Shown: positions 3,693 to 43,848 of the stretch, in pieces
Numbering within the stretch: position 1 is the first letter of the stretch
Layout of the letters: every line of letters begins with the position of its first letter
Made by a program: the position numbers and the translations under genes
Notes under the pieces: model-generated
The model's input: the letters and a program-made list of their open reading frames with translations, nothing else
What the model was told of the DNA's origin: nothing
The model's database searches: none
From: Abditibacteriaceae bacterium
GTDB lineage: Bacteria; Armatimonadota; Abditibacteriia; Abditibacteriales; Abditibacteriaceae
DNA length: 46,476 nucleotides
NCBI GenBank assembly: GCA_031425655.1
Contig: JANPJS010000092.1
Span: 1 to 46,476 of the forward strand
Direction: 5' to 3'

Positions 3693-6530
3693 TCACGTTG
3701 CGGTTGTCGGCGCGATTTCTATCATCAGCGCGGCGCCGTTGCAATCTATCGTGAGGCGGCCTTGCTCATCGGCGATGGCCTCGCGGGTCAGAGGCGCGGG
3801 CAAAGCGGGCATGGGAAGCACTTCCGGCTCCGGTTTTTCGCCTTTTTTCAGCTTTTTGGGTGGTTTGGGAGGCGCGACGGGCTTGGGCGGTGGCGCGTCG
3901 GCGGGCAAAGCCAACGTCGTGATCGTCACGCGATGGCGCGAACCGGGCGCGATTTCGTAGGTGCCGGGCGTGCTGAAAAGTTCGAGCCGCACATTCGCGC
4001 TGTTGCCGGGCTTGATGTTAAAGGTTTCGCCCTGTGGCGTGAATTCCGCCGCGTTCGGCCAGAGCGCGATGCGGGCGTTTTGCGGCGCCAATTCCAGCAC
4101 GCGCGCGATCAGCGGCCCGCCGCCGATGTTGCGGACTCGCACCGGCAGCATTTGCGAAATCAGCATGGCGCCCGGTGGCGTGTAAGCGTGCAGAGCGATG
4201 ATTTGCGCGGCGTCTTCGGCATCGGGAATGGGCGCAACGCGCGTTTGCGCTGGTGCCGGCGCGCTGCCCGGCGGCGAAAACGCGCACGCCACGTTGCTCC
4301 ACAGCCAGTTGCCCGGCGCGCCGGTTTGCACTTGCGACCAATGGCGATCCGGCACATCTATCGCCAATCCTTCCGGCCCCGGCGCGCGATGGTTCAGCCA
4401 GGCCACGGCGTCCGGGAAATTTACGGTTTCGGGATACGCCGGGCCGCTTTCATCGCCTTGCGAGGCCGCAAAGGCTTGCGCGCCGGCTTGCACGATGCGA
4501 GCGCCGCGACTAAAAAGATCGCCGTGAAAGGCGTCGAAGCCTTTCATGCCCAATGTCCAGTTTTGCCACAAGCGTAGCGGCGCGAAGACCGCGCCGCCCG
4601 CGCCCGCCGGTTTCAGCGTGAGAAACGCCGCGCCGGTTGCGTCGTCGCCCCGCGCCGTCGCGGTCGAGCCGATAGTTATCGTTCCGGGCCGGGGCAAACC
4701 GGCGCCGACAGGGCCGGAGAAGGCTTTGCCGGTCAGTCCGAGGGCGGTAATTAAAGTGCCCGGCGCGGCTTCCGACCACGATGGGAAAAGCGGGTGCGGC
4801 GTCACTTGCGAAAAGTTCACATTGTCGCGGCGCATTTGCAGCGGCGCGGCGATGCCGAACAGCGAAAGCACAGCCGGCGGCGGCTCGCCCACACGTCCAG
4901 CGGATTGCGCCGCTCCGGCGCCCAAATCGGCGACAACTACGCCGCCTTCGTTGGCGTAGCGCGCCAATCGTTGCGTGACGGCGTCGGGTAGGGAAAGCGC
5001 CTGCGGCAAGAGCAACACTTCGTAGCGATTCAAATCGGTATTGGCATCTGCTACATCTTCGGGCGCCAGAAAATCCACCGGCCCAAACGCGCTGCCCCAG
5101 CGCAGCGCATAAACCAGAGCATCGGGTTCGCCGCGCGCCAGATTGTCGCCGAAGCCGAATAATCCACGCGCTTCAACGGTGTCGGGCGGTGCATCCGCGT
5201 TGTCGGGAGCGGCGGGCGTTTGCTGCACGCTTTGCCCTTCGGCCAAAGGCGTCAGCATGATGGCGGCGGTCGCTTGCGGCGCCTGATTCCACAGCACAGC
5301 GAAAGGCGGCATCTGCAAGCGTGACAGATTCGCCGCAATATTGGCGCGCAGATTGACGTTGCGTTGCAAATCCGGCCACGAATCGAAGGCCAGTCCGCTG
5401 GCGCCGTGCGCCAAAGCCGCATCCGTCCACGAAGCGATAAGGCGCGGCAGTTCGGCGGCGCTGAGCGAGGGATTGCCGTTGGTCGAAAGCGTGGGAATCG
5501 CCGCGAAATGTCCGGCGCGGCGCGCGACGGAAACGGCCTGCGGATTATGTGTCAGCGCGTCGGGTTGAGCCACGCTCGGCGCCATGTCGGGAACGGCTAC
5601 ATCAATGGTGTTGGGCAGGCTGAGCAGTTGCGCGTAGTCGGGTAGGCGTCCGGAAAAAAGCAGCGCGTCGGCGTCGGATTCGCGCAGGTTTTGTGTCCAG
5701 AATTGGAGTAAATCCCGATAAGCATCGGCCTTATAAAGCGCCACAGCTAAGGCCGCCGGATGAAAGGCCCAGCCGCGCCCGACGGCGTCCATCCAACTCG
5801 AACGCGGCAAGCCGGTGAAACTGGGCGTTTCCACTTCCTCGCTGGCCGGCAACGATGCGCCCAAGGCTTCGGCGGCAGGCAGCCGGGCATCGTCGAGCGA
5901 AGCGTAATGCTGGTTCCACTGTGCGTTCAGCACGCTCACATCGGCGTAATTGGCTTTGATCCAGCGCGTGAAACCGTCGCTGTCGAAGATGGGCAGACCG
6001 CGCGGATCGTCGGGCAGCATCCATCCGCATAAACGCGGCGTGTCGCCTAATTGCGTGATAGTTCCGGCGATCCAGTTGCTCCACAAAAGCGTGTAAGACG
6101 AGCTATCGGCGGCGATGCGCGGATGATCTCCGCCTTCGGGCGCGGCGGGCAATTGATAAATGATCCACAAACCCAGTCGCGCGGCGGCTTCGGCCAAGTT
6201 GCGCGTGGTTTTCAAATCGCCCGGCTCCAGCGAGCCGTCGGGCGCCGGCTGCCACGGCACGCGCACCACGAGCGTGTTGAAACCGGCTTCGCGGTATTCG
6301 TCGAGTTGCGCGATTTGCGTCAGGCCGTTGGCCCAGAAAAGCGGCAGAGGCCTTCCGCCTAAAGCGATGAATTTCTTGCCGTTTTGAACTTTGGAGACTG
6401 GAGACTGGAGGCTGGAGGCTGGCTGCGTGTTGGGAGCGACGGTAATCTGCGCCTGCGCCGCGAAAGGGCTGATGGCGAAGCCTGCCAACACCCAAAACCC
6501 AAAACCCAAAACCCGAAGTCTTACAGCCAT
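3693..6530 (-). CDS. Secreted GH42/beta-galactosidase-like protein with trimerisation domain (catalytic residues atypical)
   Basis: Start moved to ATG 6530, which overlaps the tatC end and gives a signal peptide ending AQA. FTRWIKANYADVSVLNAQWNQHYASLD resembles GH42. LNRYEVLLLPQ...LARYANEGGVVVAD resembles the trimerisation domain. Confidence 0.65.
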   Translation of the reverse strand: MAVRLRVLGFGFWVLAGFAISPFAAQAQITVAPNTQPASSLQSPVSKVQNGKKFIALGGRPLPLFWANGLTQIAQLDEYREAGFNTLVVRVPWQPAPDGSLEPGDLKTTRNLAEAAARLGLWIIYQLPAAPEGGDHPRIAADSSSYTLLWSNWIAGTITQLGDTPRLCGWMLPDDPRGLPIFDSDGFTRWIKANYADVSVLNAQWNQHYASLDDARLPAAEALGASLPASEEVETPSFTGLPRSSWMDAVGRGWAFHPAALAVALYKADAYRDLLQFWTQNLRESDADALLFSGRLPDYAQLLSLPNTIDVAVPDMAPSVAQPDALTHNPQAVSVARRAGHFAAIPTLSTNGNPSLSAAELPRLIASWTDAALAHGASGLAFDSWPDLQRNVNLRANIAANLSRLQMPPFAVLWNQAPQATAAIMLTPLAEGQSVQQTPAAPDNADAPPDTVEARGLFGFGDNLARGEPDALVYALRWGSAFGPVDFLAPEDVADANTDLNRYEVLLLPQALSLPDAVTQRLARYANEGGVVVADLGAGAAQSAGRVGEPPPAVLSLFGIAAPLQMRRDNVNFSQVTPHPLFPSWSEAAPGTLITALGLTGKAFSGPVGAGLPRPGTITIGSTATARGDDATGAAFLTLKPAGAGGAVFAPLRLWQNWTLGMKGFDAFHGDLFSRGARIVQAGAQAFAASQGDESGPAYPETVNFPDAVAWLNHRAPGPEGLAIDVPDRHWSQVQTGAPGNWLWSNVACAFSPPGSAPAPAQTRVAPIPDAEDAAQIIALHAYTPPGAMLISQMLPVRVRNIGGGPLIARVLELAPQNARIALWPNAAEFTPQGETFNIKPGNSANVRLELFSTPGTYEIAPGSRHRVTITTLALPADAPPPKPVAPPKPPKKLKKGEKPEPEVLPMPALPAPLTREAIADEQGRLTIDCNGAALMIEIAPTTAT
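6382..6517. repeat. Heptamer tandem arrays inside the 5' coding region of the GH42-like gene
   Basis: (ctggaga/ctggagg)n at about 6391-6422 and (cccaaaa)n at 6485-6517. Confidence 0.85.
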
Positions 6531-7591: not shown

Positions 7592-7619
7592 CGGCGAAGC
7601 AAGTTTAGCAGGGGCTTTG

Positions 7620-7695
7620 GAATGAAGAATTGAGAATGAAGAATTGAGAAATGCAGTCCGCTTTTTCTCAATTCTTCTTTCTCAATTCTTCATTC
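7620..7695. repeat. Empty inverted heptamer array (gaatgaa/gaattga family)
   Basis: 32-bp arms at 7620-7651 and 7664-7695 with 1 mismatch; one arm supplies the stop codon of the 7690-8745 gene. Confidence 0.9.
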
Positions 7696-8745
7696 GACGA
7701 CCTGTTCCAAAATAGCGAAATCTCCGGGATTCCACGACTGCGTGAGAATATAAAGCTTGCCGTTAACCTCGCGCAAAACCGCGTTGTGAATGTGCTGAAA
7801 AGTGGTCAGGCCAAGCTCTTCTTTGGGCATGATCGTCGAAACCACCTGATCGTTTTCCAGCAGATAAATCGGAGCGCCTTTAGCGCGATCCGGGCCGTCG
7901 AGCGCGGGAACCACGGCGTAGTTGCCGAAGTAGTCAATATCGCAGGCCAAAGTGCCTTCCGGCAGTTTGAGCGTGCCCAAATATTGCCCGTAGCGCGTGA
8001 ATCGCTCGATTTCGGCGTTCGGGCGGTCGGCGACATCTATGCGCTTCTTGCCAATCGGCACGGTAATGCTGTGCCCGGTTCCCATTTGGCCGGCGCCTTT
8101 GCCTTTGCCGCCAAACGACAAATCGTGCCAAGTGACGGTTAGCGGATTGAAGCTGATTTGCGCGGTCAGCACATAATCGAGGTCGGAATAGCCGGTGCTG
8201 ATGTAATAGCGCCCGTCCAAATAGTCAACGCCGGTCGGCGCGAACTTGCCGTTGCGCGCGAAATAATCGTTGACTTTGGCATCGCCCAAGTCTTGTCCGG
8301 CAGCGGGCTTTTCCAGCGTGTGCAGGAGTTTGCCTTCCAAATCGGTCGTGAAAACTTTGCCGTTGTCGTTGGCGGGAAAAGCCAAATATGCGGCACCGTC
8401 GGGGCCATACCAGATCGAGGTATTGTGCATATTCATGTTCTTCATGGCGTCCGCTGTGGGCAGCGGCTTTATCTGCGTCATCGCGGCATTCACTTGAAAA
8501 ATGCCCGCGCCTTTCAGGAAGAAATAGGTTTCTCCCTTGCCCGGTCGGTGATCTACCGCCGAGCCGCCGTGCGCCCCACGCAACGGCTTTTTCGCGTCTT
8601 CGGGAAAACGCTCCGAGGTAAGAACAACTTTGAAGCGCATTTTGCCCTGACCGCTGACAAGCGGCGCATCCGCCGCGCGCACTGTCGTTGCGGCGAATGT
8701 CATGGCGCCAAGCGCGAGAACGGCGGCAATTTTGGGACTAATCAT
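7690..8745 (-). CDS. Secreted NHL/6-bladed beta-propeller-like protein
   Basis: Start moved to ATG 8745 (AGGAG RBS, ATGA overlap with the Uma2 stop). Signal peptide MISPKIAAVLALG...VRA. GKGAGQMGTGHSI and IDVADRPNAEIERF are NHL-like. Confidence 0.7.
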   Translation of the reverse strand: MISPKIAAVLALGAMTFAATTVRAADAPLVSGQGKMRFKVVLTSERFPEDAKKPLRGAHGGSAVDHRPGKGETYFFLKGAGIFQVNAAMTQIKPLPTADAMKNMNMHNTSIWYGPDGAAYLAFPANDNGKVFTTDLEGKLLHTLEKPAAGQDLGDAKVNDYFARNGKFAPTGVDYLDGRYYISTGYSDLDYVLTAQISFNPLTVTWHDLSFGGKGKGAGQMGTGHSITVPIGKKRIDVADRPNAEIERFTRYGQYLGTLKLPEGTLACDIDYFGNYAVVPALDGPDRAKGAPIYLLENDQVVSTIMPKEELGLTTFQHIHNAVLREVNGKLYILTQSWNPGDFAILEQVVE

Positions 8746-10562: not shown

Positions 10563-12194
10563 ATGCCAGTAGCCAACTCCGAAGAAACGCTTTATCTCAA
10601 AGAGCAACGCCGCTTTCGCCGTCTCGAAGCCTCGCTTCCGGTGTGGTTGGCCAGCGCCGACGATTTCGACCAACCCGGCGCCAAACCGTGGTCGCTGGGC
10701 TACACGCGCGATATTTCGATGGGCGGCTCCAAAGTTTTCGTGCCGACCGGCGAAGAAGAAAAATGGCGCGCCGGGCAGGCGAGTGGGGGCAAATGCCTGC
10801 TGCGTTTCGACATTCCCGGCTTGCACTCCGATGAATATGTGACCGGCCATGTGCGCCACATCGCGCGCGATAACGAGACCGGAAACTGCTGGCTGGGCGT
10901 GGAATTCGACGACGGCGCCGAACGCGCTCGCGGCGAAGTCATGCGCGCCGGTCTTAAAAGCATCAAGCAGCGGCGCGGGTTGCAATTCGGCCTCATTCTC
11001 ACTTTGGTGGTCATCGGTTTAGGCGGCTGGGTGATTAAAAGTCTGGCCGGGCGCAACGATGAATTGCGTGTTCTGATGCAGCGCGAAAATCGGCGCTTTA
11101 ACATTTTGTCGAGGCCGGGCTTAGTCGGAACGCGCGCCGAAGGCATCAGCGGTTTGTTTGAAAGTCAGGCGGTGCGCCAGCGCATTGACCAGTTGCAGGC
11201 GAACATGAGCCGCCTCAACAATCCCAAATTTCAGCAGGAAGCCGAACGCCAGCGCGAACAGGAACTCAACGAGTTGGGCTTTTTAAACCTGAAGCCGGTC
11301 CTCGGCGCGCAAGTTACGCTGGGTGTAGCGTGGCCGTATGGTTTTGCGTGGCCTCAAGTCACGCGCGATTTGGAAGAAGTTTTAGGGCGTCCGATTCCCT
11401 CGGTCGTGACATTTCGTGATTTCAAAGCGAATTTTCCCATGATTGACTGCCGCGAAGCGCGGGTGCGTGGCAAAACCCTGCAAATCACCTGGGAACCTTG
11501 GTATTTCAGCAATCCAAACGCGGTGAAAATGAGCGACATCGCGCGCGGCAAATGGGACAAATATATTGATAGCTGGGCCAACGCGGCGCGCAGTTTCGGC
11601 GGCGAATTGCATATTCGCTTTGGCCACGAATTCAACGGCAACTGGTATCCGTGGAGCGTGCCGGCTTTGAAGAAAAACGGGCAGGATGCCGGCGTTTATA
11701 TCGCGGCTTTTCGGCGTGTGCATGACCGCTTCACGCGCGCCGGAGCCGACAACGTGCGCTGGATTTGGTGCCTGAACGCCGAAAGCGTGCCCGACCAGCC
11801 GTGGAATTCGCCGCTGCGCGCTTATCCCGGCGATGCCTATGTAGACATCGTTTCGATTGACGGCTACAACTTCGGCACCGCTTTGCCCAACTCGCGCTGG
11901 CAAAGTTTCCGCGAAGTCTACACGCGCCCTTATACGATGATTTTGCGCAACGCCAGCCTCAAAAAGAAGCCACTGATGATCGGCGAAATCGGCTGCGCCA
12001 GTGTCGGCGGCGACAAAGCGCGCTGGATGCGCGACATGGACGAGCAACTGCGCGGCCCCTTTCGCAAAGTGTCGGGCATCGTCTGGTTCGAGGCCGCCAA
12101 AGAAGCCGATTGGCGCATGGTTTCTTCACCGCAAACCTTAACCGCCGCGCGCCAAATTTGGATTAAGGATCATTATCGGCGAGGAGAACCCTAA
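10563..12194 (+). CDS. PilZ domain - transmembrane helix - GH26 glycoside hydrolase fusion
   Basis: QRRFRR (RxxxR) and DISMGG (DxSxxG) PilZ motifs; TM FGLILTLVVIGLGGWVI; GH26 motifs ITWEPW, RFGHEFNGNWYPW, YPGDAYVDIVSIDGYN, PLMIGEIG. Confidence 0.85.
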   Translation: MPVANSEETLYLKEQRRFRRLEASLPVWLASADDFDQPGAKPWSLGYTRDISMGGSKVFVPTGEEEKWRAGQASGGKCLLRFDIPGLHSDEYVTGHVRHIARDNETGNCWLGVEFDDGAERARGEVMRAGLKSIKQRRGLQFGLILTLVVIGLGGWVIKSLAGRNDELRVLMQRENRRFNILSRPGLVGTRAEGISGLFESQAVRQRIDQLQANMSRLNNPKFQQEAERQREQELNELGFLNLKPVLGAQVTLGVAWPYGFAWPQVTRDLEEVLGRPIPSVVTFRDFKANFPMIDCREARVRGKTLQITWEPWYFSNPNAVKMSDIARGKWDKYIDSWANAARSFGGELHIRFGHEFNGNWYPWSVPALKKNGQDAGVYIAAFRRVHDRFTRAGADNVRWIWCLNAESVPDQPWNSPLRAYPGDAYVDIVSIDGYNFGTALPNSRWQSFREVYTRPYTMILRNASLKKKPLMIGEIGCASVGGDKARWMRDMDEQLRGPFRKVSGIVWFEAAKEADWRMVSSPQTLTAARQIWIKDHYRRGEP

Positions 12195-12199
12195 ACGGC

Positions 12200-12637
12200 A
12201 GTTTTGAGTTTTGAATTTTTAGTTTTGAGTTAGCGCGCAGTCTTATGGCAGACAGCATTATTCAGCAGAAGTCCTACGACTTTGCGCTTTCCATCATTCA
12301 GCTTTATATGGATTTGCAAAACCAGCGGGAATTCGTTTTATCGCGGCAACTACTTCGCAGTGGAACGAGCATCGGTGCGAATGTCGAAGAAGCATTAGCA
12401 GGGCAATCGCGAGCCGACTTTATTGCCAAGATGTCAATTGCTTCAAAGGAAGCCAGAGAATCTAACTACTGGTTGCGTTTGCTCCGCGACTCAAAATTGA
12501 CATCGGTTGACGTATCGCCTCAGCTTTCACAATCGGAAGAACTCGTGCGAATACTGACTTCGATTGTGAAGTCCACTAAGCAAAATTCATAATTTGATGC
12601 TGAGTAACTCAAAACTCAAAATTCAAAACTCAAAACT
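12200..12637. mobile_element. Putative cassette: four-helix-bundle gene enclosed by 33-bp inverted heptamer arms
   Basis: Arms at 12200-12232 (agttttg)n and 12605-12637 (caaaact)n are complementary at 32/33 positions. Mobility is inferred, not shown. Confidence 0.6.
12245..12592 (+). CDS. Four helix bundle protein (TIGR02436 / 23S rRNA IVS protein-like)
   Basis: KSYDFAL.II.LY, LSRQLLRSGTSIGANVEEA, SRADFIAKMSIASKEARESNYWLRLL; visibly AT-richer than its neighbours. Confidence 0.95.
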   Translation: MADSIIQQKSYDFALSIIQLYMDLQNQREFVLSRQLLRSGTSIGANVEEALAGQSRADFIAKMSIASKEARESNYWLRLLRDSKLTSVDVSPQLSQSEELVRILTSIVKSTKQNS

Positions 12638-13603
12638 ATGAAGGTCGTTCTCGAATCTCGCACTTACTCAGTGAAAGCGCATGACGAACTGATGCGCCAG
12701 TGGGACGAAGTGCGCTTCGAGCCGGGGCCGCTGAGCTTGGATTTGCGGCGCATCGGCTTCATTGATCCGTTTTCGATGTGCGCGCTTGTGCTTTTCCTCA
12801 ATCATCTGCCGTCCGAAGCTTTGCCGGTGAAATTAACTCTTCCCGGATGGCCGCCGCAAGGCGCGTTGCAAACTACCAAGCCGAGCGAAAAAAGCGCTCT
12901 TGAAACCGTGGCTAACGGCCCGGTTTCGTATCTCACGCGCATGGGTTTCTGGGACTTGGTGCGCGACCGCCTGGATTGCAGAGAAAACCAAATCCCCGTC
13001 TGGCCCAGCGATTTGCCGGAGCGCAAAGCTTTGCTCGATTTAACCGTCATGCATTCGCACGACGCCATCAGCGTGATGCTGCGCAAAACCGGCGAGATTT
13101 TGCAGGGCATCGGTTACAGCGTGATGGGCCGCGCCCATGTTTTAGAAGTGCTGTCGGAGCTTTGCTCGAACGTGCTTTTGCACGCTCAAGCCGAGTTCGG
13201 CGGCATCGCGGCGATGCAAACTTATCGCAACCGGCAGGGCACGCGCTATTTGGTCATCGGCATCGGCGACATGGGCATCGGAATGCGCGCCAGCCTTGCC
13301 GCCAACGAAAAATTCGCCGACCGACTTGATAGCGACACGCAGGCATTAAGCGTTGCGCTGCAAATGGGCGCCTCGCGTTTTGCAACCGGCGGACACGGCG
13401 GCGGCTTGCCGCGCGTGATGGAAATCGCGCGCCGTTACGGAGGCCGCGTGGCTTTGCGTTCGGGCATGGGCGCGCTTGCTTTCAACGGCAGCGACGAGCA
13501 AAAACGCTTGTTCGACGCGCCGCCGTTTCAAGGCACGCATTTGCGAATCGTGCTGCCCGAAGCCAAATTAAAAGCCGCCAAAGACGCGCCGGAATCAAAA
13601 TGA
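12638..13603 (+). CDS. ATP-binding protein: STAS-like N-terminus plus HATPase_c (anti-sigma/Ser kinase-like) domain
   Basis: LDLRRIGFIDP, SYLTRMGF, LSELCSNVLLHA, IGDMGIGMRASL and HGGGL motifs; no HisKA H-box. Confidence 0.75.
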   Translation: MKVVLESRTYSVKAHDELMRQWDEVRFEPGPLSLDLRRIGFIDPFSMCALVLFLNHLPSEALPVKLTLPGWPPQGALQTTKPSEKSALETVANGPVSYLTRMGFWDLVRDRLDCRENQIPVWPSDLPERKALLDLTVMHSHDAISVMLRKTGEILQGIGYSVMGRAHVLEVLSELCSNVLLHAQAEFGGIAAMQTYRNRQGTRYLVIGIGDMGIGMRASLAANEKFADRLDSDTQALSVALQMGASRFATGGHGGGLPRVMEIARRYGGRVALRSGMGALAFNGSDEQKRLFDAPPFQGTHLRIVLPEAKLKAAKDAPESK

Positions 13604-14457: not shown

Positions 14458-14511
14458 CTGGATGCTGGATTCTTGATGCTGGATAGTCTGCATCGAGCAT
14501 CGAGCATCAAG
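14458..14511. repeat. Empty inverted heptamer array (ctggatg / catcgag family)
   Basis: ctggatg ctggatt cttgatg ctggata ... catcgag catcgag catcaag, between a stop codon and the next RBS. Confidence 0.8.
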
Positions 14512-15640: not shown

Positions 15641-16435
15641 ATGAAAACGAAGTTCGGTGCCCACCAGCGTAAAGCGTTCACCCTGATTGAACTGTTAGTC
15701 GTCATAGCGATCATCGCTTTGCTCGCGGCTATTTTGTTCCCGGTTTTCGCCCGTGCGCGCGAAAATGCGCGCAAGTCGTCCTGTGGCAATAACATGAAGC
15801 AGATCGGCCTCGGTATAGCGCAATATACCCAGGATTACGATGAGATGATGCCCATTCGCCGGGCCTCCGATGGTGCACAGCCGGGTGGCGGTTGGCCGGT
15901 AGTCATGCAGCCATATATCAAGAACGTGCAACTTTTCAAGTGTCCTTCCGACACTTCCACTCCTGCGGCAGGGAGAAGCACCAACTCTTACGCCATGCAC
16001 CATGATCACATTAATGGCGGCGTGAGCATCGCAGATTTTACGGCAACGGCCCAAACCATAGTGGTCACCGAGATTCGTGGTGCATCATTAGACTTTACCA
16101 ACACTGCCATTGCCGTCTATGACAACGATTCTCTGATATTGGGCACATCAGGATGGGGCGCTCTTACGCGCATGGGCAATGCTTTCAATAGCGCCGGCAG
16201 TGAGACTGACCCCAATAATAGGTATAGCGCGCTGCGCACTGCACACCTTGATGGCGCCAACTACCTTGCGGCAGATGGCCACGTTAAATTCACCAGACCC
16301 AGTCAAATTTGCGCGGGCCGCACTGCGCCTGCCACAACAAGCGGGCCTGTGCCCAGCGGTGGGACTGGCGGCAATGCTCATGGCACCGCCTACACCGGCG
16401 CCAATAAGTGCGCCTTGACGATGAGTCGCTTATAA
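15641..16435 (+). CDS. Prepilin-type N-terminal cleavage/methylation protein, DUF1559 with H-X9-DG motif
   Basis: [44 protein letters not shown] and [18 protein letters not shown] 15641 follows an AAGGA RBS, with TATAAT at 15602-15607. Confidence 0.93.
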
Positions 16436-16496
16436 CGTCGTCCACCCTTCTGCAAGCCGGTGCCGAGCACAACGGTGCCGCTCGTAAATGACTTTC

Positions 16497-16536
16497 CGAC
16501 ACGTTTCAGCGCGTCGTTTCGCGCTGAAACGTGTCG
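16497..16536. terminator. Perfect 17-bp hairpin between the prepilin-like and oxidoreductase genes
   Basis: cgacacgtttcagcgcg-tcgttt-cgcgctgaaacgtgtcg; lacks a clear U-tract. Confidence 0.5.
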
Positions 16537-16545
16537 AAACGTGCT

Positions 16546-17892
16546 ATGCAAACTTCACGCAGAGTTTTTCTTGGACAAATGGCCGCCGCAACGGTGGCCG
16601 CGCCCATCGCTGGGCGCGAATTGGCGGCGCAGGCTCAGGCGCCGAATAACGTTATTCGTCACGCCAGTTTTGGCTGCAACGGCATGGCGTTCGCCGATGT
16701 GCAGGCGCTGGCTTCGCATCCCGCGATCAAAGTCGTGGCCGGGTGCGACGTGGATGCCAGTCGCACCGCGGATTTCCGCAAGCGTTTTCCCGAAGCGCGC
16801 ATTTACAGCGATTATCGTGAATTGCTCGACAAAGAAAAGGATTTGCACTCCGTCAATGTGTCAACGCCCGACCATATGCACGCGCCGATTGGCATGGCCT
16901 CAATGCAGCGCGGGTTGCACGTTTATGGGCAAAAGCCGCTGACTCACAATCTTTACGAGGCGCGCCGCTTAACCGAATATGCGCGCGAAAAAAAGCTCGT
17001 CACGCAGATGGGCATTCAAATTCACAGCGGCCCCGGCTATCGCACGGCGGTTTCCGCGATTCAAAAAGGCGTCATCGGCAAAGTGAAGGAAGTCCACTCG
17101 TGGAGCGACAAAAAATGGGGCGACAACGGCGCTATTCCCGTCCGCGTTGATCCGGTTCCCGCTAATCTCGACTGGGACAAATGGCTCGGCGTGGCCGCAG
17201 AGCGTCCTTTCATCAACGGCTTTTATCATCCCGGCGATTGGCGCAAACGCCTCGATTTCGGGACGGGGACTTTTGGCGATATGGGCTGCCATATTTACGA
17301 TCCGGTCTTCAACGCGTTAGCCCTGACTGCGCCGATCAGCGTGCGCAGCGAAGGCGCCGCGCCCAACGCGCATTCGTGGGCGACCGATGCCGTTGTGCAT
17401 TACATATTTCCCGGCACGGCTTTCACCGACGGCCAAACCGTGCAAGTAACGTGGTATGACGGCGACCGCAAGCCGCCCGCCGACCTCCTGACTCCGTATC
17501 GCGCCAAAGACGCCGCGCCCGACGACCGGCGATATACATTTCCCGAACAAGGCAGCGTTTTTATCGGCACCAAAGGCGCCATGATTTTGCAGCACATCGC
17601 CATGCCGCGCCTCATCGGCGACGAAGTGAAAGATACGGTCATTGAACAAGTGCGAGGCACCGACCACTGGCATCAGTTCGTGGACGCGATTTTAGGAAAA
17701 ACCCAAACCAGCGCCAATTTCGATTACGCCGGGCCGCTGACCGAAGCGATTTTGTTGGGCACCGTCGCCTCGCGCTTCCCCAAAACCACGCTGCAATGGG
17801 ACGTGGCCAACATGAAATTCCCCAACGTGCCCGAAGCCGATCAATATGTGCGCCGCGCTTATCGCAAAGGCTGGGAAGTCAAAGGGCTTTAA
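16546..17892 (+). CDS. Tat-exported Gfo/Idh/MocA family oxidoreductase
   Basis: SRRVFLG twin-arginine signal; VSTPDHMHA, HVYGQKPLTH, LDWDKWLG, WRKRLDFGTGTFGDMGCH. Confidence 0.92.
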   Translation: MQTSRRVFLGQMAAATVAAPIAGRELAAQAQAPNNVIRHASFGCNGMAFADVQALASHPAIKVVAGCDVDASRTADFRKRFPEARIYSDYRELLDKEKDLHSVNVSTPDHMHAPIGMASMQRGLHVYGQKPLTHNLYEARRLTEYAREKKLVTQMGIQIHSGPGYRTAVSAIQKGVIGKVKEVHSWSDKKWGDNGAIPVRVDPVPANLDWDKWLGVAAERPFINGFYHPGDWRKRLDFGTGTFGDMGCHIYDPVFNALALTAPISVRSEGAAPNAHSWATDAVVHYIFPGTAFTDGQTVQVTWYDGDRKPPADLLTPYRAKDAAPDDRRYTFPEQGSVFIGTKGAMILQHIAMPRLIGDEVKDTVIEQVRGTDHWHQFVDAILGKTQTSANFDYAGPLTEAILLGTVASRFPKTTLQWDVANMKFPNVPEADQYVRRAYRKGWEVKGL

Positions 17893-17945
17893 AGTGTGAA
17901 GTGCGAAATGCGGAGTGCGGAATATTCAATTCGCACTCCGCATTT
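17893..17945. repeat. Inverted heptamer array (agtgcgg family) left of Uma2
   Basis: agtgtga agtgcga aatgcgg agtgcgg aat ... attcgc actccgc attt. Confidence 0.85.
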
Positions 17946-17962
17946 ATTTTGTCGGGCTGAAT

Positions 17963-18526
17963 TTACGAAAAAATCTCGTTGACCGGGCACTCGAAGCCGG
18001 GCAATACCTCGCCGCCGCTGATAATGTCGCCGCGTCGCAGAATTTGAGCTTGCGAGGCCGAGACGTGAATGTGAATCGTTTTGGAGGTTGGATAAGCGAT
18101 CCAAACTTGCCGCGTGCCGCCCTCGAACCAATCCTGAATTTCGGCTTCGATTTCTTCGGCGCGGTCGCCCGGCGAAACGACTTCGACCGCTAAATCCGGC
18201 GCGCAGGGGCAGAATTTTTGTGTGATCTTGCCACCGATGCTTTGTAGCGTGGCATTAGAAACGAAAGCCACATCGGGAGCGCGCACTACGTCGGGATTAC
18301 GGCGCAGAATAAATCCAGTCCCACCTGCGACAACCTTTCCCACCATCACACACTTGACGTATGAATTGAGCAACGCGCCGATAGCGGCAGCGATAACGCC
18401 ATGCTCGGCTCCGTGAAACGGCAAGCGATGCACAACTCCGCGCACGAGTTCAGCTCGACACGACGGGAAAGACATTTCGAAAAACTCGTCTGCTGTCACC
18501 AATTTTTCCAGAGTTGCCGTGTCCAT
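17963..18526 (-). CDS. Uma2 family (DUF820) endonuclease
   Basis: ELVRG, VRAPDVAFVS, APDLAVEVVSPGD, GGEVLPGFECPVNEIF; GAGGT RBS. Confidence 0.93.
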   Translation of the reverse strand: MDTATLEKLVTADEFFEMSFPSCRAELVRGVVHRLPFHGAEHGVIAAAIGALLNSYVKCVMVGKVVAGGTGFILRRNPDVVRAPDVAFVSNATLQSIGGKITQKFCPCAPDLAVEVVSPGDRAEEIEAEIQDWFEGGTRQVWIAYPTSKTIHIHVSASQAQILRRGDIISGGEVLPGFECPVNEIFS

Positions 18527-18561
18527 CGTGTTACCTCACTGCTATCTTACAACGCAGTTTA

Positions 18562-18619
18562 AACGCGAATGCGAGGCGCGATGTAAAATTCCGCACTCGG
18601 AATTCCGCACTCCGCACTT
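18562..18619. repeat. Inverted heptamer array (agtgcgg family) right of Uma2
   Basis: aacgcga atgcgag gcgcga ... attccgc actcgga attccgc actccgc actt. Confidence 0.85.
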
Positions 18620-20233: not shown

Positions 20234-20878
20234 TTATTTTTGAAGCCGAGTCACGGTTTCCTGGCGCGCGGCGAAGCAGAGTGCGATGGCTAATGCGTCG
20301 GCCACGTCGGGCGGTTCGGGGATAGCGGCAAGACGCAGGCGCGCTTTGACGGCGGCTTGCACCGCGCTTTTTGAGGCGTGTCCGTTGCCTGCGATGACTT
20401 GCTTGACTTCGTTGGGCAAAAACGAGTGAACCGGCACGTTCGATTGCTGCGCCGCTAATAGAAAAACGCCGCGCGCCTGAGCCATGAGCAGCGCGCTGCG
20501 CGGGTGCTGATACATCGAAAACAATTCTTCAATGACCACAACTTCGGGCTGAAATTCTTCGATAATCTCGCACAAACCTTTAAACAGCGTTTGCAATCGC
20601 AACGGCATCGCATCCGTGGCTTTGGCTTTGAGAAAACCTGCTTCGACCATTTGAGGAAGTGACGAGTGACGAGTGACGAGTGACGAGTCTGAATTCGTCA
20701 CTTGTAATTCGTCATTCGTCACTCGAATCAGGCCGTAGCCGGTGCGATGCAAGCCGGGATCAACGCCTAAAATCAACGAGGCGTGCGGCAGATTTTCCAA
20801 ACGTCGTGCGCGCTTTTCCTGCGAACCGTCGCCCGCGTGCGAGGAAGTGGGAATTGTCGGCAGAGGGCGGGTTTTCAT
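20234..20878 (-). CDS. ruvC: Holliday junction resolvase RuvC with an in-frame repeat-derived insertion
   Basis: ILGVDPG..TGYGLI, VVIEE, QARGV, VKQ.IAGNGHASK..VQ, PPDVADALAIA. The start codon is uncertain. Confidence 0.93.
   Translation of the reverse strand: MKTRPLPTIPTSSHAGDGSQEKRARRLENLPHASLILGVDPGLHRTGYGLIRVTNDELQVTNSDSSLVTRHSSLPQMVEAGFLKAKATDAMPLRLQTLFKGLCEIIEEFQPEVVVIEELFSMYQHPRSALLMAQARGVFLLAAQQSNVPVHSFLPNEVKQVIAGNGHASKSAVQAAVKARLRLAAIPEPPDVADALAIALCFAARQETVTRLQK
20658..20725. repeat. Inverted heptamer array (agtgacg family) inside ruvC
   Basis: (agtgacg)x4 ... attcgtc acttgta attcgtc attcgtc actcg. Confidence 0.9.
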
Positions 20879-30701: not shown

Positions 30702-30922
30702 CGAATCGCAGATGACCCCATAAATTCGGCTGCAAGTGCGCTTCGACGGCTTCGTCGGCGGTGCCCGTAGCGAAAGCGCTCGCCTGATGCCACATTGCAA
30801 GGCAGGGCAAGTTCTAATGCGATTGTCCAGACATCGCAGGGCAGGCGATGCTTAGTCCATTCGCGCGCGGCTATACTGCCTCGAAAGTTGTAGAAATCCG
30901 GCGCGATCATGCAAAAAAACTC
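30702..30922 (+). repeat. Left copy of the direct repeat (blocks A and B) flanking the DUF559 gene
   Basis: Block A 30702-30787 matches 31909-31985; block B 30831-30922 matches 32066-32157 at 89/92 positions. Confidence 0.9.
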
Positions 30923-31010: not shown

Positions 31011-31850
31011 TTAACGGAATGGAGCAAAGAGGCTGAGTTGTTGGTAGCCGTCGGCGCCGGAGGCGGCCCACTGCTGCCCTCCACATGCGGTCATCAGGCC
31101 GCCGCGTTGGTTGATGGTTTCTCGAACTTTGTGCATACAATCAGGCAAGTTATCGTGCAGTGCGCGGCTGTTGAAGCGCAAAACGGCCCAGCCTTGCGTG
31201 GTCAGCGCATTGTCGCGCGCATTATCGGCGGGGATACGGTCGCGTTGGGCGTGCCATGTGTCACCATCGCATTCAACATCAATGGCGCCTTGACCACAAA
31301 AAAGCGCAAAGTCAAGGCAGTATGTCGCTTTGCCGGCTTTGAGATAATATTGCCGCTCCGCTTCGATACTCTGGGTTTTGAAGGCTTCCCATAATTCATC
31401 TTCCAACGGGCTTTCGTGAAAAAGATCGTTGATTTCCAATGCGTTCTGAAACTTTTTCAGGGTAGTCGGGATGAAAACGATACGCCGTCCCCGCGCGCTG
31501 AAAATTGGCCGGGACAGCTTTTTCAATTCGCCCAGTTCCAAACAATAATAGTCGGCATCAGCGCGAGCGTGACCGGGCTGGTTGGGAAATAAGTCGCGGC
31601 GCTTAACAATGCGGCGCCCTTTGATTTCCGTCCAGTAATTTATGGCCCATCCTTCGTCCCCGAAGATTTTGGTCTGATAGAAAGCGATATGGTGCGCCAC
31701 CACTGCACTTGGCGCACTTTTGACGGGAATGCGATACCAATGCTCATCACGTGCAATGGCAAAGTCGCGTTTGTTGTTCATCAGCGCGACCAAAACCTGT
31801 TGCGCGGGCGGCACTTGATAAGGAGCGAAACGCGGGCCTCTGGTCTTCAT
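31011..31850 (-). CDS. DUF559 (Vsr-like) endonuclease with an N-terminal WYRIP (PUA/EVE-like) domain
   Basis: ESPLEDELW..., YCLDFA...IDVECDGDTWH, DNARDNAL...GWAVLRF; GAGGAG RBS; TATACT -10 at 31887-31892. Confidence 0.88.
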   Translation of the reverse strand: MKTRGPRFAPYQVPPAQQVLVALMNNKRDFAIARDEHWYRIPVKSAPSAVVAHHIAFYQTKIFGDEGWAINYWTEIKGRRIVKRRDLFPNQPGHARADADYYCLELGELKKLSRPIFSARGRRIVFIPTTLKKFQNALEINDLFHESPLEDELWEAFKTQSIEAERQYYLKAGKATYCLDFALFCGQGAIDVECDGDTWHAQRDRIPADNARDNALTTQGWAVLRFNSRALHDNLPDCMHKVRETINQRGGLMTACGGQQWAASGADGYQQLSLFAPFR

Positions 31851-31908: not shown

Positions 31909-32157
31909 CGAATCGCAGATGACCCCATAAATGCGGCTCAAGGTGCGCTTCGTCGGCGGTGCCGGCGGCGAAAGCATTTGCCTGAAACTGGTTAGTTAAG
32001 GCACCGAGAGTTTAACCGTCCGCTTTTTGGTTAGCTGAGAGCGCGGTTCTCGTCACCATCATGCCACATCGCAGGGCAGGCGATGCTTAGTCCATTCGCG
32101 CGCGGCTATACTGCCTCGAAAGCCGTAGAAATTCGGCGCGATCATGCAAAAAAACTC
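31909..32157 (+). repeat. Right copy of the direct repeat (blocks A and B) with an interposed block C
   Basis: Matches 30702-30922; block C 31998-32035 matches 25088-25124. Confidence 0.9.
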
Positions 32158-32449: not shown

Positions 32450-33525
32450 AACAACGCTGTTTAATGATCGGCGCCGGAGGCATGGCGCGGGGCTGTATTC
32501 AAAACTTCTGGACGCCGTTTCGAGATAGCATGGAGTTCGCCGGCCTCGTGGATGTCAACCGCGCGGCGCTGGACGAAATGGGCGATTTTCTCGGTTTGCC
32601 CGCGACGGCGCGGTTTACCGACACGCGCGAAGCCTTCGCGCAAAGCGAAGCCGATTTTTGCTGCATCGTGACGCCGCCACAGTTCCATCAGGAAGCCGTC
32701 GAATTGGCCTGCGCGCGGGGTATGGACATTCTTTCCGAAAAGCCGATTTCCGATAGTTGGGACGGTTGCCGCGCGATTTATAAAGCCGTGCATCAAGCCG
32801 GCGTCAAGATGATGGTGACGCAAAATTACCGCTACAACCCGACGATGCTCACGCTGAAAAAGGCCATCGCCGAGCTTGGCGCTGTGAATTACGTCGTGGC
32901 GCGCTACGCCGAAGATTACCGTGTGCGCGGCGCGTGGGGCGCGGCTTTTCGCCACCAAATTCCGCATTCGCTGCTTGTCGAAGGCGCGATTCATCATTTC
33001 GATCAGATTCGCAATCTTTCCGATGCCAATTGCCGTTTCGTGACGGGTTTCGAGTGGCATCCCGGCCACACGCGCGGCGACGACGCGAAATGGAAGGGCA
33101 GCGATTCGTTCGACGGCGAGCCGTGCGGCCTTTTCGTGATGGAAATGGAAAGCGGCAGCTTTGCCCAATACGAAGGAAATAATCTGGCGACCGGTAAGGT
33201 CAACGGCTGGCATCACGAATACTATCGCGTGGAATGCGAAGGCGGCGTGGCCATTTTAGATAGCGACCTCGTCGTGCGCGTTGACAAGCGCGGCGCCAAA
33301 AACATGGTGATTTCGCATGAAGTGCCACTCGAAACGCCGCGTTTTGTAGGCCATTTGCAAATGCCGGCGCAGTTTCTCGACTGGCGCGACGGCGGCCCGA
33401 TTCCTCCGACTGCGCTGGGCGACAACATTCAATCGAGCGCGCTCACCTTCGCCGCGATTGAAGCCAGCGAAACGCGCCGCGCCGTGGACGTGCAGCAAAT
33501 GGTGCGCGAAGCGATTCAAAATTAA
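32446..33525 (+). CDS. Gfo/Idh/MocA family oxidoreductase
   Basis: IGAGGMA, IVTPPQFH, ILSEKPI, QNYRY, EGAIHHFD. Confidence 0.92.
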   Translation: MKQRCLMIGAGGMARGCIQNFWTPFRDSMEFAGLVDVNRAALDEMGDFLGLPATARFTDTREAFAQSEADFCCIVTPPQFHQEAVELACARGMDILSEKPISDSWDGCRAIYKAVHQAGVKMMVTQNYRYNPTMLTLKKAIAELGAVNYVVARYAEDYRVRGAWGAAFRHQIPHSLLVEGAIHHFDQIRNLSDANCRFVTGFEWHPGHTRGDDAKWKGSDSFDGEPCGLFVMEMESGSFAQYEGNNLATGKVNGWHHEYYRVECEGGVAILDSDLVVRVDKRGAKNMVISHEVPLETPRFVGHLQMPAQFLDWRDGGPIPPTALGDNIQSSALTFAAIEASETRRAVDVQQMVREAIQN

Positions 33526-33625
33526 AAATGCAAAGTGAAAAATGTAAAAAGAAGCGCGCAATTTCATTTTCGACGCCTTCGCTATCGCTGATGATTTTTG
33601 CATTTTTAACTTTGCATTTTGCATT
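33514..33625. repeat. Inverted heptamer array (atgcaaa family) spanning a stop codon, a start codon and a signal peptide
   Basis: attcaaa attaaaa atgcaaa gtgaaaa atgtaaa ... ttttgca tttttaa ctttgca ttttgca. Confidence 0.8.
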
Positions 33626-36289: not shown

Positions 36290-37380
36290 GCGCTCAGAAG
36301 TCAGAAGTCAGAAGCCGGAAGTCAGAAGAACGTGGCTCTCACTTCTTCTGGATTCTGATTTCTGTCTTCTGTCTTCTCACGTCGGCTCAAAGTCAAAGCG
36401 TGTCGTTGGCGGCGGTGGGCGATGTGCTGTTAGATCGCGGCGTGGCAACGCAGCTTCGCGCGCACGGCACCGATTATCCGTTTCAATTCGTCGCGCCGGT
36501 TTTGCGTTCGGCGGATGTTGCGTTCGGCAATCTCGAATGCCCGATTGCCGAGCGCGGGCAAAAAGTCATCAAGCCTTATGTTTTTAAAGCCGATCCCGCC
36601 TTCGCGCCGTGTCTAAATGCCGCCGGGTTTGATATTCTCTCGTTAGCCAACAATCACGCGCTCGACTGCGGGCGTTTGGGTTTAGACGAAACGATGGCCA
36701 CGCTGCGCCAGCGCCAGATTCGCTGGGTCGGGGCGGGAATTAATCGAATGCAGTCGGAAAAAGCCACGATATTGAAAGTGCGCGGCCTGCGCGTGGCGTT
36801 CGTCGGATTTTGCGAGTTTCTGCCCGAAGGCGTGTTTCTCAACGATGAGAAAACTTCGATTGCCTTAGCCGATGAAAACCGCGTGCGCATCGCGTTAGAG
36901 AAAGCGCGCTCGCAAAGCGATGTTCTCATCGCTTCGTTTCACTGGGGCGTTGAATATCAAAATCGTCCGAGCGCGCGTCAAAAGTTATTGGCGCGCGTGG
37001 CGGCCAAAGCGGGTGCCGATTTGGTTTTAGGCCATCATCCGCACGTTTTGCAGGGCGTGGAAATCCTGCCGCGCGGCGACAAAGCGGCGCGCGGGCGCAA
37101 AACCGTGGTAGCGTATTCGCTGGGCAACTTTTTGTTCGACGCGCCTTCTCGTTGGGCAAAGGAAACGCGCGATTCGGCGATTTTTCGCTGCACGTTCGAT
37201 AAAACCGGCGTGCGCTCCGCCGAATTCGTGCCGATGATTATCGAAGATTGCCGTCCACGCCCGGCGCGCGGCGCGCAAGCAACGGCTTTGCAAGCGCGCC
37301 TGTCGAAGCTCTGCGCCGAATTGGGCACGAAGTTGAAGCAGGGTCGGGTGCTTTTGCCGGCTACAAAGGGCGTGAAATAA
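36283..37380 (+). CDS. CapA/PgsA family metallophosphatase-like protein
   Basis: AVGDVLLDR, FGNLECP, SLANNHALD, FHWGVEY, GADLVLGHHPHVLQ, AYSLGNFLFD. Start moved to ATG 36283. Confidence 0.92.
   Translation: MLSAQKSEVRSRKSEERGSHFFWILISVFCLLTSAQSQSVSLAAVGDVLLDRGVATQLRAHGTDYPFQFVAPVLRSADVAFGNLECPIAERGQKVIKPYVFKADPAFAPCLNAAGFDILSLANNHALDCGRLGLDETMATLRQRQIRWVGAGINRMQSEKATILKVRGLRVAFVGFCEFLPEGVFLNDEKTSIALADENRVRIALEKARSQSDVLIASFHWGVEYQNRPSARQKLLARVAAKAGADLVLGHHPHVLQGVEILPRGDKAARGRKTVVAYSLGNFLFDAPSRWAKETRDSAIFRCTFDKTGVRSAEFVPMIIEDCRPRPARGAQATALQARLSKLCAELGTKLKQGRVLLPATKGVK
36294..36377. repeat. Inverted heptamer array (tcagaag family) encoding the CapA signal peptide
   Basis: (tcagaag)x3 ccggaag tcagaag ... 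tcttctg gattctg atttctg tcttctg tcttct. Confidence 0.9.
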
Positions 37381-38703: not shown

Positions 38704-39642
38704 ATGATCGAAGTCGAAAATCTTTCCAAAACCTACGGCAGCAGTCGGGGCGTGCAGGGCGTGACCTTCAAAGTGGGCAAAGGCGAAGTCGTGGGTTTTT
38801 TGGGGCCAAACGGCGCCGGAAAAACCACCACGATGCGCATTCTCACTTGCTTCATGGCGCCGACGGCGGGCACGGCGCGCATCGCCGGGCATGATATTCT
38901 CGAAAACTCGCTCGAAGTGCGGCGCAATGTCGGTTATCTGCCTGAAAACGCCCCACTTTACCCGGAAATGTCGGTGCGCGATTACTTGAGTTACGTCGCG
39001 GCCTTGCGCGGCGTGCCGAAGAACAAACGCGCCGAACGCCTCGAAGCCGCGCTTGACGCCGGCAGCCTTGAAGACAAAGCCGACACGCTGATTTACAAGC
39101 TCTCCAAAGGCTACAAACAGCGCGTCGGCATCGCGCAAGCCGTGGTTCACGACCCGCCGGTGCTGATTTTGGATGAGCCTTCGGCGGGCCTCGATCCGCG
39201 CCAGCGCGTCGAAACGCGCCAGCTTATTCGCTCATTGGCCAAAGATCACACCATTATTCTTTCCACGCACATTTTGCCCGACGTGCAGGAAACTTGCTCG
39301 CGTGTGGTGATTATCAATCAGGGTCGCCTCATCGCCGAAGACACGCCGCAGCATTTGGGCGGCGAGCGCGGCGACCGCATCACGCTGGTCGTCAGTCGCC
39401 CGTCCGCCGACGCTTTGGAAAAATTGGAGCGCATCGCCGGCATCACGAAAGCGAGCGAGGAACCAATCGCCGAAAACGCGGCCAACGAGCGCGTTTTCGT
39501 CTTGGACGCGACGGCGGGCAAAGACGTGCGCGAAGAAGCCGCACGCTTGTGCGTGAACGAAGGCTGGGGCCTGCTGGAACTCAATCGCCAGCGTCGCAGC
39601 CTCGAAGAAGTATTTTTGGAATTGACACGAACGGACGAGTGA
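38704..39642 (+). CDS. ABC transporter ATP-binding protein (GldA-like)
   Basis: GPNGAGKTT, LSKGYKQRVGIAQA, LILDEP, LSTHIL. Confidence 0.95.
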   Translation: MIEVENLSKTYGSSRGVQGVTFKVGKGEVVGFLGPNGAGKTTTMRILTCFMAPTAGTARIAGHDILENSLEVRRNVGYLPENAPLYPEMSVRDYLSYVAALRGVPKNKRAERLEAALDAGSLEDKADTLIYKLSKGYKQRVGIAQAVVHDPPVLILDEPSAGLDPRQRVETRQLIRSLAKDHTIILSTHILPDVQETCSRVVIINQGRLIAEDTPQHLGGERGDRITLVVSRPSADALEKLERIAGITKASEEPIAENAANERVFVLDATAGKDVREEAARLCVNEGWGLLELNRQRRSLEEVFLELTRTDE

Positions 39643-39647
39643 GCGGC

Positions 39648-39729
39648 AGTTTTGAATTATGAGTTTTGAGTTTTGAGTTGCGCTCCGGTCAACTCAAAAT
39701 TCAAAATTCAAAATTCAAAATTCAAAATT
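39648..39729. repeat. Empty inverted heptamer array (agttttg family) abutting the next ATG
   Basis: agttttg aattatg agttttg agttttg agttg - cgctccggt - caact (caaaatt)x5 ATG. Confidence 0.92.
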
Positions 39730-40449: not shown

Positions 40450-40453
40450 GCAA

Positions 40454-40485
40454 GTGCGGAATGGCGAGTGCGGAGTGCGGAATTG
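40454..40485. repeat. Single-arm heptamer array (agtgcgg family)
   Basis: agtgcgg aatggcg agtgcgg agtgcgg aatt between a stop codon and the next start; no partner arm. Confidence 0.75.
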
Positions 40486-42076: not shown

Positions 42077-42144
42077 AGTGACGAATTACGAGTGACGAGT
42101 GACGAATTTTCAACTCGTCATTCGTAATTCGTCACTCGTAACTT
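42077..42144. repeat. Empty inverted heptamer array (agtgacg family) abutting the next ATG
   Basis: agtgacg aattacg agtgacg agtgacg aatttt caa ctcgtca ttcgtaa ttcgtca ctcgtaa ctt ATG. Confidence 0.9.
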
Positions 42145-43512: not shown

Positions 43513-43517
43513 GGTAA

Positions 43518-43848
43518 TCTCTCGCAAAGGCGCAAAGGCGCAAAGATTTTCTAAATAAAAGACAAATTGAATTTAGAAAATCACCTTACGCAGTGGAGTG
43601 TGTTAGGCAGGCGGACTAAAGAAGGGTTGTCATTCTGAGTCCTGCCCAGAGGGCACCCGGAAGAATCTCGGCCTCTGCGTTATCTTTGCTCATGCTCGTG
43701 TGGAGCCTCTTATGCAGAGATTCTTCGCAAGCTCAGAATGACTCATCACCTTGTTGGTTGACCTGCCTATCACACCCCACTGCGTAAGGTGATTTAGAAA
43801 ATCCTAGCAACTATAAAAATCTTTGCGTCTTTGCGCCTTTGCGAGAGA
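43518..43848. repeat. Inverted nonamer (cgcaaaggc) repeat enclosing a MITE
   Basis: 33-bp arms at 43518-43550 and 43816-43848 with 1 mismatch. Confidence 0.9.
43582..43791. mobile_element. 210-bp MITE with 30-bp TIRs and an 11-bp target-site duplication
   Basis: TIRs caccttacgcagtggagtgtgttaggcagg and cctgcctatcacaccccactgcgtaaggtg (2 mismatches); atttagaaaat at 43571-43581 and 43792-43802. Confidence 0.88.

Follow-up and report, generated by a model that had tools for sequence, protein, structure and literature searches.

A four-helix-bundle gene enclosed by five-core heptamer arms at an operon junction of an Abditibacteriaceae bacterium

Two kinds of described bacterial elements resemble the locus analyzed here, and each of them has already been published separately: ORF-bearing intervening sequences (IVSs) and gene-less pairs of heptamer arrays. 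The IVS of Coxiella carries heptamer repeats inside its stem (PMC4990558), and paired sites with 'five tandem heptanucleotide repeats' have been described for Geobacter (PMC2700814). Our literature search, outside which lay most subscription journals and the bioRxiv supplements, found no link between heptamer pairs and a PF05635 gene. The present locus joins two questions, namely the role of the PF05635/TIGR02436 family and the reason why heptamer repeats crowd bacterial intergenic DNA.

The window, i.e. the whole stretch of 46,476 nucleotides that was analyzed, is contig C92 of a 5.98-Mb genome which is 97% complete. It contains a cassette of 438 bases wedged between two operon genes (Table 1). 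The arms of the cassette are 33 nt long each, lie 372 nt apart and are complementary at 32/33 positions (97%). The initial annotation had described heptamer arms enclosing a four-helix-bundle gene, and its coordinates as well as the complementarity were reproduced exactly. Each window arm comprises 4 x 7 plus 4-5 bases, i.e. five cores, and the third unit is an AAT variant in the 5' and the 3' arm alike. The TAA of the upstream GH26 gene is located 5 nt before the 5' arm. As RNA the cassette and the hairpin at 39648 are both predicted to fold far better than shuffles (z -6.2 in each case), of which 0/100 and 0/200, respectively, were as good.

A long stem of terminal inverted repeats around an S23p-family ORF, as in rRNA IVSs, is present in the cassette. 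Insertion in a 16S or 23S rRNA gene is not: the window gave no Rfam match, and the neighbours of the cassette are protein genes. The cassette is a variant of the ORF-bearing IVS design located outside rRNA, and it is a general one. A terminator scan detected nothing at its arms, and a profile search found no transposase within it, the PF05635 gene being the sole cargo.

Table 1. Features at the cassette and at the hairpin at 39648; positions refer to the window
Feature	Position	Strand	Basis
Upstream host gene, PilZ + glycoside hydrolase 26 (GH26)	10563..12194	+	Profile match; TAA stop 12192-12194
ACGGC spacer	12195..12199	+	End motif common to other AGTTTTG-family copies
5' arm, five in-phase A(G/A)TT cores at 12200, 12207, 12214, 12221, 12228	12200..12232	+	Sequence
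Four-helix-bundle gene, PF05635/TIGR02436, 115 aa, no Shine-Dalgarno (SD)	12245..12592	+	Profile match
3' arm, five AA(C/T)T cores, abuts next ATG	12605..12637	+	Reverse complement of 5' arm, 32/33
Downstream host gene, HATPase_c domain	12638..13603	+	Profile match
Stop of ABC ATPase gene, upstream of hairpin	39640-39642		Profile match
Gene-less hairpin, AGTTTTG unit family: five cores, 9-nt loop, six cores	39648..39729	+	Sequence
ATG of ABC permease gene, downstream of hairpin	39730		Profile match

The ORF of the cassette matched PF05635 (E 4.6e-24, 85.1 bits, cut-off 33.8) and TIGR02436 (E 4.3e-29, 100.9 bits, cut-off 24). A structure model of the protein, built from 91 aligned sequences (pLDDT 95.8), predicts a fold of four helices. 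The model resembles 2RLD (BT_0352, about 50% identical) with a Z of 19.3 and an rmsd of 1.5 over 110 aligned residues, and 2GSC (Xcc0516/XCC0516) with a Z of 16.0. Both structures consist of five chains, and these together with the title of Lin et al. 2006 suggest that the cassette protein is likely a homopentamer. A structural relation of the family to Avd had been stated in the initial annotation. The fold does resemble Avd, but weakly, since the Z of 13.1 is tied with unrelated bundles; in a profile search Avd ranked third with an E of 0.092. The closest homologue found was an Abditibacteriaceae record (L186) with 78% identity, and the nearest homologues found outside this family were Chloroflexota proteins with 70-72% identity.

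In total, seven PF05635 genes were present in the genome and all of them were enclosed by inverted tandem arms, whose unit differed from gene to gene and in one case was an 8-mer. The arm test required a score of at least 14, which six of the seven genes reached, the remaining one scoring 12. Among relatives, 50/64 PF05635 genes scored at least 14 and 14/64 below; this sample comprised 70 of about 150 listed matches from 61 genomes, from which one gene of the own genome and five others (two at contig ends, three broken or fused) were dropped. The same score was reached by 58/4363 control genes of this genome, called with a simple in-house predictor, and 0.8% of cross-paired flanks passed the test. 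In GTDB 553 homologous loci were confirmed; of the best 80, 77 were scoreable, and 45 of these, from 13 named phyla, were armed, with 32 below the threshold. The predicted enrichment of arms around family genes was thus found in the own genome, in the relatives and across phyla. With Uma2 genes as a further control, 1/18 was enclosed by arms.

This lone enclosed Uma2 gene (PF05685) is located in the window at 17892-18619 on the minus strand between five-core AGTGCGG arms, and a portion of its hairpin core is duplicated. Homologues from Nostocales mostly carried the 3' arm only, with 4-13 AACTCC(T/C) units and a decayed 5' arm (L189-L192, L194, L198, L226, L230, L233 and L255). Additionally, long inverted 8/9-mer arms with 2-3 copies enclosed small genes at C45:32813-33196, C215:20791-21186, C228:10649-11035, C260:1527-1931, C298:36500-36820 and C126:3928-4302. 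These form a parallel cassette system of another period and count, and the genes putatively encode GxxExxY proteins.

Genome-wide, exactly five in-phase cores were found in 240/408 arms, and five was the mode in 6 out of 10 unit families: AGTTTTG (136/186), AATGCAA (17/20), AATTGAG (11/14), AGTGACG (37/56), AGTGCGG (14/14) and AGTGAAA (7/12). The other four families showed no clean peak at five; GGTTTTG was tied between four and five cores, and GATGAGG, AGTCAGA and GATGCTG were not cleanly five. Armed cassettes from the 13 phyla carried five cores in 53/90 arms, and the 8/9-mer repeat families of the genome have 2-3 units. Five cores and five subunits together suggest one core per subunit. TRAP is a ring that binds spaced triplets, which the proposed five-core ring would resemble. 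In the DGR complex five of five Avd protomers contact the RNA stem-loop, and flipped-out RNA bases are held in crevices between the protomers (10.1101/2023.10.23.563531).

The type of core was associated with the clade of the protein. At least three in-phase A(G/A)TT cores were present at 73/81 homologues of at least 50% identity and at 5/59 below 45%, counts that come from kin rather than from independent samples, with the distant group stemming from one phylum. Among random flank windows 21/760 had such cores. Where the GC content of the flanks was at least 50%, 24/25 loci carried them. All 64 of the 3' arms with three or more cores began A(G/A)T, which in 61 cases was continued to A(G/A)TT, and the core detector demands just purine-N-T. 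The linker was variable (TTG, AGG, GGG, AAG, ACG), a change occurring in both arms together. In a tree of 73 proteins, in which many forks were unresolved, the window protein grouped with copies from other genera bearing A/T-rich AATTTTG-like arms, and 8-mer arms fell mostly into one group. Silent sites were saturated (pS 0.80-0.86) while pN was 0.14-0.26; the gene is therefore under purifying selection, and the core persists longer than neutral sequence does. Part of the tie between clade and core could, however, stem from a joint transfer of gene and arms, even without recognition. Published support for our interpretation comes from the heptamer repeats inside the Coxiella IVS stem and from Rehm et al. 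(PMC4692102, supplement 2 row 27), in whose table a GGGAATC array of 4 units extends over the start of XCC0516, the gene of 2GSC. Within the table of that source the array has no inverted partner, which counts against our interpretation.

The initial annotation had regarded the cassette and the hairpin at 39648 as filled and empty forms of one element. Both sites start with stop-N-CGGC-AGTTTTG and end with CAAAA(C/T)T-ATG. The common context is thus real, but it is a family trait, as CGGC stands immediately 5' of 24 arms in the genome, and it does not tie the two sites to each other. Likewise, the arm abuts the ATG at both sites, but this holds for a minority of 7/75 oriented AGTTTTG hairpins, the modal gap being 3 nt. 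The genome contains about 90 gene-less AGTTTTG hairpins with short loops; 86/93 loops were distinct, and their similarity to the cassette interior did not exceed that of shuffled sequences. The hairpin at 39648 is therefore an ordinary sister hairpin, and its status as an empty allele of 12200 was ruled out.

Altogether 465 period-7 arrays of 68 units were found in the genome, compared with 10-100 for the periods 5, 8, 10, 11 and 13. Hairpins contained 355 of the 465 arrays, and heptamer hairpins numbered 241. When the interiors of 75 long hairpins of the genome were searched for remnants of genes, only the intact genes and weak repeat-derived matches emerged. Neither the AGTTTTG loops nor these interiors support a descent of gene-less hairpins from filled copies, which counts against the explanation preferred below. 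By eye, copies of the GATGAGG family had loops in common, and so did copies of the AGTGAAA family. The AGTTTTG pattern matched 343 times in this genome and 23-58 times in congeners, and 16/27 family genomes had no match. All four family genomes with a close homologue of the cassette gene had AGTTTTG arrays. On the other hand, 7/11 family genomes with such arrays had no close homologue, which also counts against our explanation; in one of the family genomes (G011, one contig, 5 pattern matches) nothing matched PF05635.

Further heptamer arms or hairpins of at least six unit families besides AGTTTTG were located in the window at 6392-6514, 7599-7716, 14458-14508, 20657-20725, 33520-33625, 36291-36377, 40451-40484 and 42077-42144. 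At 43515-43848 hairpins are nested: 8-mer (GCGCAAAG) arms surround a 41-nt REP-like inverted repeat (43571-43802), which itself encloses another palindrome. This suggests that elements insert in one another's loops, and a comparable nest was seen inside an AGTTTTG hairpin on contig C258. Moreover, direct repeats at 30702-30922 and 31909-32157 (60 and 92 nt, 85% and 97% identity, respectively) bracket a minus-strand gene at 31011-31850.

The hairpins are concentrated at operon junctions, in agreement with the initial annotation. Of 197 placed hairpins (a further 15 fell within gene calls and 14 lay at the edges of contigs) 178 lay in co-directional junctions, compared with a background of 1931/2787 (p 8e-12), and convergent junctions were under-used (13/197). 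In 69/75 AGTTTTG cases the 5' arm began between -8 and +7 of the upstream stop, and often it supplied the stop. The proposal that folding brings stop and start next to each other also held up, since in 48/55 junctions without SD the predicted fold would leave them within -5 to +12 nt. The distances from stop to arm and from arm to start did not covary (rho 0.05, p 0.70), and unpaired arrays had a polarity of 7 vs 4. AGTTTTG hairpins also flank the genes at C207:4868-5864 and 16119-16625, whose N-termini presumably are those of the ribosomal proteins L2 and S11; such hairpins would be tolerated in essential operons.

The comparison of orthologous junctions revealed turnover. The downstream HATPase gene was found in 27/60 relatives. 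In one of them (G001) the gene and the 3' arm of the cassette are present at the GH26-HATPase junction, with the contig cut upstream. Seven relatives with a direct GH26-HATPase junction lacked an intact gene, as anticipated for a gene that is not fixed there, and the hairpin found in its place was another one in each of them: heptamers of other units in three, non-heptamer hairpins in two, a REP-like one in one and, in G010 (L029), 8-mer arms enclosing a short gene remnant that belongs to another PF05635 clade (E 1e-5, compared with 5.5e-4 for the best of 300 shuffles). An empty allele of the same unit, which had been expected, was thus not among these seven junctions. As a candidate for a strain-level empty allele we considered skips of 371-381 bases, which occurred in the public run X1 only (4 of 11 listed runs compared). 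Because the sequence between the arms differed in these reads and loose ends fell at the arm borders, we interpret them as other hairpin copies, and the candidate was rejected. The junction of 39648 could be matched in 11/26 relatives: three congeners had heptamer hairpins of other units (GGTTTTA, GCTNTTA), and among eight other family genomes three had unrelated hairpins and five none or a short remnant.

In the congener G003, 185 orthologous junctions were scored across 1.2 Mb. A hairpin was present there at 26/45 junctions with a heptamer hairpin in our genome vs 14/99 without. Judged by eye, the 45 junctions held the same family in 7 cases, another heptamer in 27, a tight or empty junction in 5 and other or none in 6. 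Occupancy was correlated in the by-eye set (p 1.7e-7) and with a stricter automatic classifier (p 1e-4); the latter gave 10 hairpin-hairpin pairs, one of them mis-phased, and the count by eye was used instead. Filled and empty alleles at orthologous sites, as known for MITE/REP-type elements, are therefore present, the occupants being mostly of another unit. The empty alleles are stop-start pairs that overlap or nearly touch. At the five empty sites no target-site duplication was apparent by eye, although the species compared are already about 20% diverged in protein, so that one may have been missed. Junctions filled in relatives mostly have a different gene-less hairpin in this genome. The best fit is a replacement of hairpins by copies of others in the same genome, since every genome uses a unit set of its own; stepwise change of the unit in place is a possible alternative.

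Based on these results we lean towards the following explanation, which builds on the observed anatomy, the tie between gene and arms, the five-core length in several unrelated families, the tie between clade and core and the exchange at junctions. The cassette at the operon junction would encode a protein that is likely a five-subunit ring binding one arm, with one AGTT/AATT core per subunit, and it would be selfish and moved by host enzymes or enzymes in trans. The protein would be a pentamer like its solved homologues and would read single-stranded arm nucleic acid, most likely RNA. The ring may protect or open its own arm type and so set arm length and core sequence. The hairpin would be tolerated because it extends from the upstream stop to the following start codon, so that folding out would leave the two within about 10 nt of each other and translation would remain coupled. 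Cassette and gene-less forms would spread as selfish passengers and overwrite hairpins already at junctions. Their movement may be due to host repair or recombination, or to an enzyme supplied in trans, because the cassette has no transposase and no reverse transcriptase was found; the genome carries six Y1_Tnp transposase genes outside the cassette. The evidence for recognition is stronger than that for movement. The overall idea of the initial annotation, a transposase-free element that targets junctions, was largely right, but its pairing of 12200 with 39648 did not hold.

The alternative which survives best, though we consider it unlikely, is an mRNA intervening sequence, in which RNase III cuts the 33-bp stem, frees the gene loop and splits the operon mRNA. 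Architecture and protein family are as in the Coxiella IVS, which is cut by RNase III mid-stem (PMC4990558); RNase III is encoded in our genome and the stem is predicted to be stable. However, mismatches read in the mRNA sense were G-U in 100 and A-C in 138 cases (p 0.016), and 33 vs 75 near start codons. Selection for an RNA stem, implied by the initial annotation, was thus not seen. The lower number of G-U arises because 3' arms are purer than 5' arms (213 vs 151 AGTTTTG units). Cutting would also leave the five units and the clade-specific core unexplained. Excision as an mRNA IVS can nevertheless operate alongside the preferred ring-bound cassette.

The higher purity of the 3' arms speaks for a domesticated translation control, to which we assign a slightly lower probability. 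Here the A-rich 3' arm would replace the SD, and the ring or ribosomal protein S1 would regulate many operons, so that the element would not be selfish. Translation control has been proposed for TAACTGA arrays (PMC4679880). SD-like motifs were found at 3/69 arm-abutting starts vs 29% genome-wide; the latter value compares with 4% in controls, so the host does use SDs. However, the missing SD is partly trivial, because the arm fills the SD position, and an SD follows the arm in 12/67 hairpins. Furthermore, congeners hold different units, or none, at one junction, and 16/27 family genomes gave no AGTTTTG arrays.

Passive repeats are improbable; in this case slippage and fold-back copying would generate the arms within tolerant gaps, and the gene would have landed in a hairpin as a hitchhiker. 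Variant units common to both arms of one hairpin amounted to 34, compared with a mean of 14.5 and a maximum of 27 in 2000 shuffles. This points to fold-back copying or to selection for pairing, and the former is what passive repeats predict. The distinct loops, the persistence of arrays without the gene and the single Uma2 gene inside such arms fit as well. Left unexplained are the 7/7 armed PF05635 genes vs 1/18 for Uma2 and the sharp five-core peak, as well as the fact that GC-rich and AT-rich hosts alike have kept one core although silent sites between them are saturated. Very improbable is Avd-like retro-mobility, in which the ring would recruit a reverse transcriptase in trans and the RNA hairpin would be copied into new junctions: the Avd-like fold, the weak profile similarity, the role of Avd as a reverse transcriptase partner (PMC6182149) and the preference for transcribed stop-start junctions, which fits an RNA stage, are outweighed in our view by the absence of an RVT_1 match from this genome (97% complete), G001 and G002, with only a broken piece in G003, so that the array-richest genus lacks an intact reverse transcriptase in the four genomes searched, while 20/23 other family genomes have one although AGTTTTG arrays are scarce or absent in them.

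An exact prediction follows from the five-core rule and from the tie between clade and core: a given protein X should recognize its core Y in five copies spaced at 7 bases. BT_0352, whose structure is solved, is available for such an assay. If it is true, there would be a natural family of small rings that differ in repeat specificity, and a route for hairpins within operons that leaves translational coupling unbroken. A broader and more tentative proposal is a new class of enzyme-free selfish elements. In these a pentameric ring would count five 7-base units with clade-specific core codes, competing families would overwrite hairpins at stop-start junctions, and the ring would open or shield the stem for downstream translation. 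Such a class would explain why 7 is an over-represented repeat period in bacteria and would give PF05635 a function; ORF-bearing rRNA IVSs, and possibly the Avd of DGRs, would be its offshoots.

REP/RAYT and MITE pairs consist of autonomous and non-autonomous copies. The present system resembles them in having few gene-bearing copies, many gene-less hairpins and a repeat family per gene clade. It differs in that the cassette gene is no transposase, the arms are tandem arrays, the loops differ between copies and convergent junctions are rarely used. With Avd of the DGRs (4DWL, 8UB7-8UBE) the protein has in common the four-helix bundle, the five-chain family structures and a putative RNA binding; identity is only about 15%, and in contrast to a DGR the cassette has no reverse transcriptase, template repeat or variable repeat nearby.

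The ORF-bearing 23S rRNA IVSs (Coxiella helix 45 with S23p; Leptospira) likewise encode a protein of this family within the loop of an approximately 30-bp stem, with heptamer repeats before the ORF and a poor SD or none (PMC4990558). Unlike these, our cassette is located between protein genes and has its many gene-less sisters in the same genome. The heptamer pairs GGGAATC of Xanthomonas (PMC4692102), TAACTGA of Beggiatoaceae (PMC4679880) and those of Geobacter (PMC2700814) agree with our arrays in the period of 7, about 4-5 units and the inverted arrangement between aligned genes, as found here for 355/465 arrays in hairpins and for the co-directional junctions. They also share the purine-rich arm near the stop and the complementary arm near the start, and they do not occur at the same genes in sister species. 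The parts of these sources consulted name no partner gene for the published pairs, whereas our arms go together with PF05635 genes, and the type of core with the clade of the protein.
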